From Candidatus Anoxychlamydiales bacterium (GTDB taxonomy: Bacteria; Chlamydiota; Chlamydiia; Chlamydiales; SM23-39), in assembly GCA_011064905.1 (NCBI GenBank), contig JAAKFW010000001.1:1-25208 (forward strand): a stretch of DNA of 25,208 bases. The letters are read 5' to 3'. Below the pieces are notes generated by a model. That model was given only the letters and a program-made list of their open reading frames with translations, ran no database searches and was not told where the DNA came from. The translations under genes were made by a program, and so were the position numbers. This document shows, one piece after another, positions 23,224 through 25,033 of this stretch. Numbering within the stretch: the first letter of the stretch is position 1; every line of letters starts with the position of its first letter.

Positions 23224-24117
23224 TTAAAACTCGTGACTTTCAAACTCTTCGTAATATTTACTTAAGTTTTCATTTAAAAAACTTATTTTTTCAGGCTCAT
23301 TATCTTCTAGATATTTTTTTAAGATTTTCGTAGCTTTTATCATTTCTTTTTTATATCCGGCTGGAGTTTGAAGTTTTTCATCAAAGTACCATCTTCCTAT
23401 ATCTATGGTTACAGCTTTATTATCAAATAGCCCCCAGTTTCTTCTTTTTTTGCCGATATCGTCATCAATTATTAATTTTTTGGTTCTATTGTGAACCATC
23501 TCTAAAAAGGACTCTATTAAATACATTTTATAGTCTTCATCTGATGTTTTTTCATAGACCTGATAAAAAATATCACATTTTTTTTGAAGAATAAAAAATA
23601 TGTTATTTAGGTCTAAATCAAAGTTTTTTCCATATTTGTTTTTTACTTTTACCCTATCTTTAAAAACATCTGCAATATTTAAATTCACATAGATAAGAGC
23701 AGAGTCCTCTTTTAAGTTATCAAAAGCAAGTTTTGCGCTAGAGAGATTAAAAGCGAGTTTTTTACATCTTCTATTGTAGTGTTTTTTTCTGTAATTATCT
23801 AAAAAACTTGGAAGAGAAACTTTTGGAAAAAAATACTTTGTATAATATCTAGACGAATCAAAAAATTTTAAAACATATTTTTTATCTTGGCTCTCAAATA
23901 TAAAACACTCCCTTCCCCTTGTTAAATAATGAAAATTTTGAGATAAAATTTCTTTAGTTTCATCTAAGTTTTTTTCTACATCGATTTTGTATGTATCATC
24001 TACTTTATCAAATTTAGTGATTAGGCTCGATCTAAAGCCATCTGTTCTATTTAAGGCTAACCATATAAAAAAAACTAAAGCTAAAAATGGAAGAGTATTT
24101 TTTAAAGTTTTATTCAT
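23224..24117 (-). CDS. N-anchored protein-kinase-like-fold protein, paralog 2 (ORF track starts at 24141)
   Basis: ATG at 24117 lies 1 nt after the upstream stop; TM LPFLALVFFIWLAL; YLTRGRECFIF, YVLKFF, FILQKK, DIGKKRRN and TIDIG. Confidence 0.75.
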   Translation of the reverse strand: MNKTLKNTLPFLALVFFIWLALNRTDGFRSSLITKFDKVDDTYKIDVEKNLDETKEILSQNFHYLTRGRECFIFESQDKKYVLKFFDSSRYYTKYFFPKVSLPSFLDNYRKKHYNRRCKKLAFNLSSAKLAFDNLKEDSALIYVNLNIADVFKDRVKVKNKYGKNFDLDLNNIFFILQKKCDIFYQVYEKTSDEDYKMYLIESFLEMVHNRTKKLIIDDDIGKKRRNWGLFDNKAVTIDIGRWYFDEKLQTPAGYKKEMIKATKILKKYLEDNEPEKISFLNENLSKYYEEFESHEF

Positions 24118-24118
24118 A

Positions 24119-25033
24119 TTAGGATGCATTATTTTCCTCATTTAATTTTATATTTTTATTTTGAGTTAGTTCAAGAAGCTTTGCATCTAAAAATTCTATA
24201 GAATCTTTAGAATTTTTCAAAAGCCATTTTTTTAGATATGTAGTGTAATGAGTAGCTTCTTCTTTTAGTTTTTCTTCATTAAAATCATTTTTAATAATAA
24301 ATCTACCAATATCTATTTCTACAACTCTATCATCTATAACACCCAGATTTTGAATAACATGTCTATCTTTATTTAGAAGGTTTTTAGAATATATCGATTG
24401 TAGATTATCAAAAAATGAACTTAAAAGAGTTTCAATGGTTTTTTTATCCTTTTTAGCATTTAAAAGAGCTTTCTTAAAAGGAAAAGCTTTTTTTTGAAGA
24501 ACAAAACCAACCTCATTGAGATCCACTAAATGAGTGTTTTTAAATTTATCTTCTATTTTAAATTTTCTATTTAAATCGTTAGTTTTATTTAAATGCACAT
24601 AAATAGTTGCTGTTTCATCTTTTAGTTTTTCATAAGCTAATTTATAGCTGTTCATAGACTCATAATATAAATCATCTTTTTCATCTTGAATTTTTGTTGT
24701 ATATTTTTTTGCTATTTCAAATGAACTAATCAAATTACAAAAAATTGATTGTCTATATCGATGAAATCTAAAAAGTTTTAAAACATATCTATTATCATCA
24801 CTTACAAATACAAAGGATTGTCTACCCTTACTTAAAAACCTGTATTTTTGGTTTAAAATTTCTCCTAAATCTTTATTTTCTAAGACATTGATCTCAAAGC
24901 GATTCAAAAAAAGCTCTTTTGGCTCAATTTTATCCAATCTAAAGCTAGAGCTATAAAAGACCCAAGCCTTTGAAAAAACAGCTACTAAAACTAGCAAAGA
25001 AATGATTTTTAGAGGTATTTTTAAAAATTTCAT
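24119..25033 (-). CDS. N-anchored protein-kinase-like-fold protein, paralog 1 (304 aa)
   Basis: TM IISLLVLVAVFSKAWVFY; FLSKGRQSFVF, YVLKLF, FVLQKK, DRHVIQN and EIDIG. Confidence 0.78.
   Translation of the reverse strand: MKFLKIPLKIISLLVLVAVFSKAWVFYSSSFRLDKIEPKELFLNRFEINVLENKDLGEILNQKYRFLSKGRQSFVFVSDDNRYVLKLFRFHRYRQSIFCNLISSFEIAKKYTTKIQDEKDDLYYESMNSYKLAYEKLKDETATIYVHLNKTNDLNRKFKIEDKFKNTHLVDLNEVGFVLQKKAFPFKKALLNAKKDKKTIETLLSSFFDNLQSIYSKNLLNKDRHVIQNLGVIDDRVVEIDIGRFIIKNDFNEEKLKEEATHYTTYLKKWLLKNSKDSIEFLDAKLLELTQNKNIKLNEENNAS

Follow-up and report, generated by a model that had tools for sequence, protein, structure and literature searches.

Among enzymes with a protein-kinase-like (PKL) fold, the LPS and glycan kinases WaaP, KdkA/InaA (PF06293), WaaY and WbdD act at the cytoplasmic face of the membrane on glycolipid sugars, are encoded in LPS operons and combine an HxD motif with a D-x4-N catalytic loop. 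These kinases carry an insert between strand β3 and helix αC, and in WaaP, KdkA and PI4K type II an insert at this position is used for membrane contact. The kinases Bud32/PRPK, RIO1/RIO2 and ArkI are cytoplasmic or nuclear and are built as a small bilobed core without an activation segment. Kinase folds that work outside the cytoplasm are represented by Fam20A/B/C, CotH and POMK; the glycan kinases POMK and Fam20B have a type II anchor, and Fam20A is a pseudokinase partner. To our knowledge, the Gram-negative periplasm is not a place where kinases that depend on ATP would be expected. Phosphorylation of envelope proteins has a precedent in CotH, and the ATP source of extracytoplasmic bacterial kinases such as CotH is an open question (PMC7821199). 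For AceK, the catalytic triad is formed by D457, N462 and D475 (PMC3747045).

Two paralogous genes with a predicted PKL fold, here called A and B, adjoin on the minus strand of contig C1 of a 1.57 Mb genome with 30% GC; this contig, a stretch of 25,208 nucleotides, is the window analysed here. The two proteins share 32% identity across 249 aa (E 2e-27), and their nearest named homologues are found in Candidatus Anoxychlamydiales. The genes are as follows:

24119..25033, minus strand: paralogue A, 304 aa, predicted N-terminal signal anchor and protein-kinase-like domain (open reading frame, AlphaFold2 model, structural matches, dN/dS).
23224..24129, minus strand: paralogue B, 297-301 aa depending on the start at 24117 or 24129, predicted signal anchor and kinase-like domain, translationally coupled to A.

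Comparison with the orthologues at locus L003 of a relative gave a dN/dS of 0.25 for A and 0.17 for B, which identifies both as real genes under purifying selection. Three positions (24117, 24129 and 24141) are candidate starts of B. The ATG at 24129 has a GAGGA motif 5 nt upstream and its equivalent is the sole start in the orthologues P0040 and P0042, so that the start of B is ambiguous. A preliminary annotation made from the nucleotide sequence (the sequence-only reading) had placed 1 nt between the stop of A and the start of B; this gap is true for ATG 24117, whereas ATG 24129 overlaps the stop of A by 11 nt, and the coupling of the two genes holds for either start. Promoter and terminator scans returned signals at shuffle level only, and a search for plasmid matches found none.

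AlphaFold2 models were built from 150-row alignments and reached a pLDDT of 95.2 for A and 96.0 for B. The sequence-only reading had proposed a kinase-like fold and had named structure prediction combined with Foldseek as the check, and this proposal is borne out by confident bilobed models, with a β-sheet N-lobe and a helical C-lobe, and by matches to PKL structures only: the best 50 structural matches of the A and B models alike all belong to this superfamily. For A, AceK ranks first (Z 11.9-12.4, rmsd 4.0 over ~205 residues, 12-13% identity), followed within ~1 Z unit by PRPK/Bud32 (11.6), RIO1 (10.9) and ePKs, while for B the tRNA kinase ArkI is the top match and AceK is tied or second. 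POMK (SGK196) aligns to B with a Z of 9.2, level with many others. Foldseek comparisons with LPS/glycan kinases gave E values of 2e-4 to 1e-3, and WaaP and WbdD rank below AceK, PRPK/Bud32, RIO1 and ePKs among the structural matches. Fam20, CotH, HipA and PI4K do not occur among the best 50 matches listed for A and B. In an atlas of clusters, the nearest by shape are AceK (TM 0.57) and Kdo/InaA (TM 0.52), and the nearest by features, to be taken as leads only, are YrbL (0.87) and WaaY (0.86). On these models, A and B clearly belong to the PKL superfamily, with no known family standing out.

Sequence searches agree with the earlier suggestion of an uncharacterised family. A, B and the family profile found no match in Pfam, NCBIfam or PDB sequences, and a Pfam search of 34 family members was equally negative. 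The kinase domain of AceK (PDB 3eps, 6k5l) is the first match of A, with which it shares the fold and the register of the catalytic triad and N-x-G segment, and comes second for B. AceK differs from both, however, in being a soluble cytoplasmic protein with a regulatory domain and a D-x4-N rather than a D-x5/6-N loop, and its lead over the next family is below 1 Z; A and B are single-domain proteins of ~300 aa with no N-terminal regulatory domain and no match to PF06315. The Bud32/PRPK, RIO1/RIO2 and ArkI group (Z 10-11.6) resembles A and B in its small core without an activation segment, but has neither an export signal nor a β3-αC insert of 42 residues such as theirs, and A and B, unlike this group, match no Pfam family. 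For the LPS kinases, the shared PKL fold and β3-αC insert stand against the lack of sequence or profile similarity: no match to PF06293 or to the WaaY profile PF06176 was obtained, an HxD-x4-N loop is absent from the family, and comparing profiles returned nothing for WaaP, WaaY or YrbL of E. coli. Fam20 and CotH likewise showed no Pfam or PDB sequence match to A or B.

The active-site features that carry this assignment are:

24776..24778, minus strand: Lys86 of A (β3 lysine), invariant in 373/373 homologues.
24311..24367, minus strand: catalytic loop of A, Asp223...Asn229, to the DxG residue Asp241; conserved, with a weakly scoring alignment to AceK Asp457, Asn462 and Asp475.
23401..23868, minus strand: catalytic residues Lys84, Asp220, Asn227 and Asp239 of B (numbered from ATG 24117), invariant or nearly so in alignments.

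All of the ordered motifs that had been read from the two sequences are present in order, namely a basic N-terminus, a single hydrophobic segment, the Gly-loop, YVLK, F.LQKK, D-x5-N in A or D-x6-N in B, and IDIG. Among 373 full-length homologues, no substitution occurs at G70, K86, Q180, N229 or D241 (A numbering), 366 retain D223, and the complete set of four catalytic residues (Lys, Asp, Asn, Asp) is intact in 366; given this conservation, the motifs are far beyond chance. The model of A has G70 after strand 63-69 and before strand 73-78, with K86 within strand 83-88. An hhalign comparison with AceK, weak at a probability of 7.6%, superimposes D223, N229 and D241 on AceK D457, N462 and D475 and keeps the following N-x-G segment in register. 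From these sequence features, the family members are probably active kinases.

Several features nevertheless depart from the kinase canon and speak for a different reading, in which the exported PKL fold performs other chemistry, such as nucleotide hydrolysis, AMPylation, transfer from a non-ATP donor or nucleotide sensing. The spacing between catalytic Asp and Asn in the 366 homologues is x5 in 324, x6 in 38 and x4 in three, the position of the HxD His is occupied by Asp or Asn, and the HRD-x4-N loop of Hanks-type Ser/Thr/Tyr kinases (Pkinase) does not occur in the family. No acidic residue is conserved in the middle of αC, where Ser129 is kept in 92% of homologues, and E140, acidic in 86%, is positioned beyond the αC helix. 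The invariant Gln180 and the conserved Ser129 and His147 also count for this reading. PKL folds have been repurposed before, in SelO and SidJ. Against this reading stands the full Lys/Asp/Asn/Asp set in canonical order and in register with AceK, which makes a non-kinase activity improbable and leaves phosphotransfer as the preferred function.

The membrane side of the domain is judged from the N-terminus, for which the following features are annotated:

24953..25033, minus strand: residues 1-27 of A, basic n-region and hydrophobic, non-amphipathic helix, predicted N-in/C-out (model helix 5-27, hydropathy, family statistics, proteome control).
24052..24093, minus strand: hydrophobic core of the predicted B signal anchor, 14 residues (hydropathy, orthologue alignment, model).

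Export traits were scored with heuristic hydropathy and charge scales over 185 members of the family, 99% of which carry an N-terminal hydrophobic segment, compared with 30% of the open reading frames of the genome. A net charge of at least +2 within the first eight residues is found in 84% of the family and in 27% of soluble reading frames, indicating that the basic N-terminus is not merely a consequence of AT-richness. Hydrophobicity is uniform along the segment and its moment is low, which rules out an amphipathic surface helix. The single transmembrane segment of the sequence-only reading stands insofar as one hydrophobic segment exists and a second is found in 0/187 members, but its core is short (median of 15 uncharged residues) and resembles a signal sequence that stays uncleaved more than it does a long transmembrane helix.

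The short core and some basic residues after it would also suit an anchor of reverse orientation or a re-entrant helix, of the kind found in WaaA, LapB and PglC, which would keep the kinase in the cytoplasm. There it would act on lipids of the inner leaflet or on proteins, using ordinary ATP with no difficulty of supply. A basic membrane-docking helix is, in addition, typical of cytoplasmic peripheral enzymes. The charge distribution speaks against this topology, with a mean net charge of +2.4 before and +0.8 after the helix and a higher charge before it in 137/185 members as opposed to a lower one in 15/185, and no helix-breaking Ser-Pro motif is conserved in the alignments. Lipoproteins are extracytoplasmic, and a Simkaniaceae clade of the family carries a lipobox Cys in 20/21 genomes (ten identified by pattern and ten read by eye), four to five residues before the conserved GF that opens the domain. 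This clade keeps an intact active site, and its kinase domain must therefore be extracytoplasmic, while its sister clade in the tree retains the signal anchor. Taken together, a cytoplasmic location is quite unlikely.

This natural swapping of signals is the strongest evidence for export, with the limit that it represents one lipobox origin only, in another family than that of A and B, neither of which contains a lipobox. In three fusions with two domains a single signal is present, and that of P0079 looks cleavable by eye; a search for longer fused forms, itself weak evidence, found none, and most anchored members have no conserved cleavage site. The location outside the cytoplasm, first argued from the positive-inside rule, is now backed as well by the lipoprotein clade and the one-signal fusions, and by these sequence traits the domains of A and B are very likely exported beyond the cytoplasmic membrane. 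They would then share an extracytoplasmic kinase fold with Fam20A/B/C, CotH and POMK, and among these the anchored POMK and Fam20B may offer the closest functional analogy. In the Simkaniaceae loci L139-L160 (e.g. F8L4W3), the paralogue with the lipoprotein signal always has an anchored sister paralogue directly after it.

The locus had been described as a tandem pair, and both paralogues are indeed real and adjoining; the unit, however, is a triplet, since a third paralogue, C, precedes A in relatives. A-B are two thirds of a triplet that is conserved in Anoxychlamydiales-like genomes: C-A-B are contiguous on the same strand in the relatives L001, L003 and L043. In the present assembly, C is placed at one end of contig C254 (gene ~C254:15512-16381), and the ends of C254 and C1 align end to end on L003. 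The break is marked by one further feature:

25111..25208, no strand assigned: end of an IS-like multicopy element upstream of A; the opposite end is found on contig C254, 3 nt beyond the stop codon of paralogue C (G000:C254 16382-16479).

The inverted ends of this element start with GAGGCAATTGCG and close C254 and C1 as well as contigs C54, C149, C238 and C258. As element ends close both C254 and C1, an IS-like insertion between C and A would account for the contig break and would separate C from A in the present assembly. Such an element may uncouple A-B from the promoter of C.

In the phylogenetic tree, the A, B and C sequences of closer relatives fall into three supported orthologous groups, with A and C as sisters within family f1 and B branching separately. 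The groups are old and each has its own fixed catalytic loop that differs from the others, which argues for separate specificities. All retain the complete set of catalytic residues, in contrast to Fam20A. The earlier suggestion of a possible heterodimer is not supported as a requirement: 14 of the 102 genomes that encode the family, including Waddlia chondrophila, contain a single match, and no pseudokinase paralogue is present among A, B and C, which makes an obligate A-B heterodimer unlikely; A and B may pair optionally.

Counting paralogues across Chlamydiae, as the sequence-only reading had advised, located the family in 102/150 Chlamydiota genomes with 1-14 matches each. The family profile collects 2,523 clusters (50% identity), of which 2,337 score below 1e-10, and the family is thus large and sharply bounded. 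Members from cultured organisms include F8L842, F8L838 and F8L4W3 of Simkania negevensis, D6YV50 of Waddlia chondrophila and Q6MEH1 of Protochlamydia amoebophila; the named Simkania, Waddlia and Protochlamydia members are annotated as uncharacterised, with the exception of F8L4W3, a 'Lipoprotein' in UniProt. The named matches to one Parachlamydiaceae-type query are chlamydial and the remainder is unnamed. Kinase copies occur in tandem and closely coupled, with as many as eight or nine genes in a row. The f9 loci L059, L061 and L063 comprise 8-9 such paralogues, strongly diverged from one another, and matches reach 14 per genome.

The family was not found in the 26 genomes of family f4, which we take from the data to be Chlamydiaceae (genomes of 1.0-1.4 Mb, a genus of 22 species), nor in several small families, although very diverged homologues could escape the search. 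A relaxed search (E 1) of five kinase-negative genomes found no homologue. LpxK served as a positive control, and its detection in 25/26 f4 genomes indicates that these are searchable; near-universal at 149/150 genomes, it shows no correlation with the kinases as a co-distributing partner. In the literature, with thin coverage of subscription journals and hence a possible prior description, no account of the family or its accessions was found. The proteins constitute an apparently undescribed PKL family of environmental chlamydiae that lies outside all known families tested. Its presence in most environmental families, as opposed to its apparent absence from f4, represents an envelope difference between symbiotic and pathogenic chlamydiae.

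The substrate question is approached through the β3-αC region, represented in A by the following feature:

24650..24775, minus strand: residues 87-128 of A, insert from the β3 lysine to the end of αC; a short aromatic helix followed by a long helix, basic in the family as a whole; putatively membrane-facing.

This insert comprises 42 residues and has a family mean net charge of +6, compared with ~0 in the rest of the domain, and its aromatic stretch is the best interfacial window in 195/373 proteins. An insert that is both aromatic and basic, together with an anchor joined directly to the domain, slightly favours a membrane-embedded acceptor. By analogy with the LPS kinases, a lipid-linked or otherwise membrane-embedded envelope substrate is the leading guess, held tentatively and at somewhat less than even odds. 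Among the points against a lipid acceptor, protein kinases supply the closest solved folds (AceK, PRPK/Bud32, RIO1 and ePKs), and the insert carries almost no net charge in the present A, with subfamily means of +3 for A and +7 for B.

The same export and catalysis could instead serve periplasmic or outer-membrane proteins, making the family a counterpart of CotH and Fam20C, for example during the developmental cycle. The best structural neighbours agree with this idea (AceK at Z 12.4, PRPK at 11.6 and RIO1 at 10.9), and repeated lineage-specific expansion to 14 diverged copies suits many targets. These neighbours are nearly tied, however, and give little guidance on substrate, given that a tRNA kinase tops the list for B. 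An activation segment ending in APE is absent, the DxG motif being followed in the models by a three-residue strand and a helix within ~10 residues; a Lys two positions past the catalytic Asp is not conserved, and the membrane-type insert would be left unexplained. Protein substrates are an alternative only slightly less likely than the membrane-embedded acceptor.

The best overall explanation, still a tentative one that falls short of an even chance, is that A, B and C are active ATP-dependent phosphotransferases which are exported and act on membrane-embedded envelope acceptors. In a first step, most likely, Sec would export the domain and the uncleaved signal helix would hold it at the periplasmic face of the inner membrane. 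Secondly, and with comparably high confidence from the computed fold and residues, Lys86 together with Asp241 and Asn229 would bind ATP-Mg and Asp223 would act as the base. Thirdly, the aromatic and basic β3-αC insert might dock the active site at the bilayer, where a glycolipid, an LPS sugar or a lipid-linked glycan could be the acceptor; each paralogue, with its own conserved catalytic loop, would have its own acceptor and no obligate partner. Finally, as a speculation, host ATP that crosses the periplasm towards NTT translocases of the inner membrane could be the donor. Full-length TLC/NTT translocases number at least three in the genome, and NTTs are core chlamydial genes (PMC8242063). External ATP enters the periplasm of E. 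coli (PMC7432876), and the combination of translocases with external ATP that reaches a Gram-negative periplasm makes host ATP in transit a plausible, if speculative, donor. Chlamydiaceae, however, import ATP without the kinase family.

The ATP problem would disappear if the domains travelled past the periplasm, as surface lipoproteins, by cleavage and type II secretion or in vesicles, to phosphorylate lipids or proteins of the host or inclusion membrane with host ATP directly. Lipoprotein and cleavable-looking variants do exist, and copy number differs widely among host-associated lineages; yet most members are anchored with no conserved cleavage site, and orthologues are fixed in position and under purifying selection, so that such a route has a slim probability. 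Returning to kinases retained in the envelope, environmental chlamydiae might run a dedicated periplasmic phosphorylation system, in which 1-14 inner-membrane or lipoprotein kinases intercept host ATP before the NTTs and modify the envelope, and which was lost in the vertebrate-pathogen lineage; in this full form the proposal is possible but rather unlikely. With its intact active sites, export signals of three kinds and culturable members, the family makes periplasmic phosphorylation in an ATP-importing bacterium directly testable.

Gene neighbourhoods of 46 kinase loci are lineage-specific, and neither a shared partner nor a co-travelling envelope-biosynthesis gene was found across them. Near the triplet, an MGDG-synthase-like GT28 gene (L005 7580-8866, G000:C254) is Chlamydia-specific and without a Pfam match; it occurs in 53/151 Chlamydiota genomes, mainly in families f1 and f8. 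It was rejected as a family-wide partner, being adjacent to the kinases only in f1 and 1.2 Mb away in Simkania. Its distribution also differs from that of the kinases: it is found in 0/14 f3, 1/22 f9, 0/2 f12 and 4/17 f6 genomes although kinases are mostly present there, and it is present in f15 and f19, which lack them.

Other neighbours are recorded as separate observations. In Parachlamydiaceae (L052, L054-L056), a second kinase paralogue is flanked on the same strand by a ComF-like phosphoribosyltransferase on one side and by an unannotated ~1,700-aa protein on the other. Within the window, a family-5 solute-binding protein (528 aa) is coupled to an unannotated 679-aa reading frame (9324-12946), and a solute-binding/reading-frame pair of comparable type and size separates kinase copies in the Simkaniaceae loci L064-L069. 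Downstream of B, a convergent gene (22422-23159) encodes an acidic protein of 245 aa with two halves that look similar by eye and no family match; in L001, L043 and L081, B is likewise followed by a reading frame of similar size and placement. A gene at 20481-22190 specifies a 569-aa protein with a long acidic tandem-repeat region, a hydrophobic C-terminal end and no credible Pfam match. An ordinary mlaE-mlaF-mlaD lipid transport operon occupies positions 617-3396.
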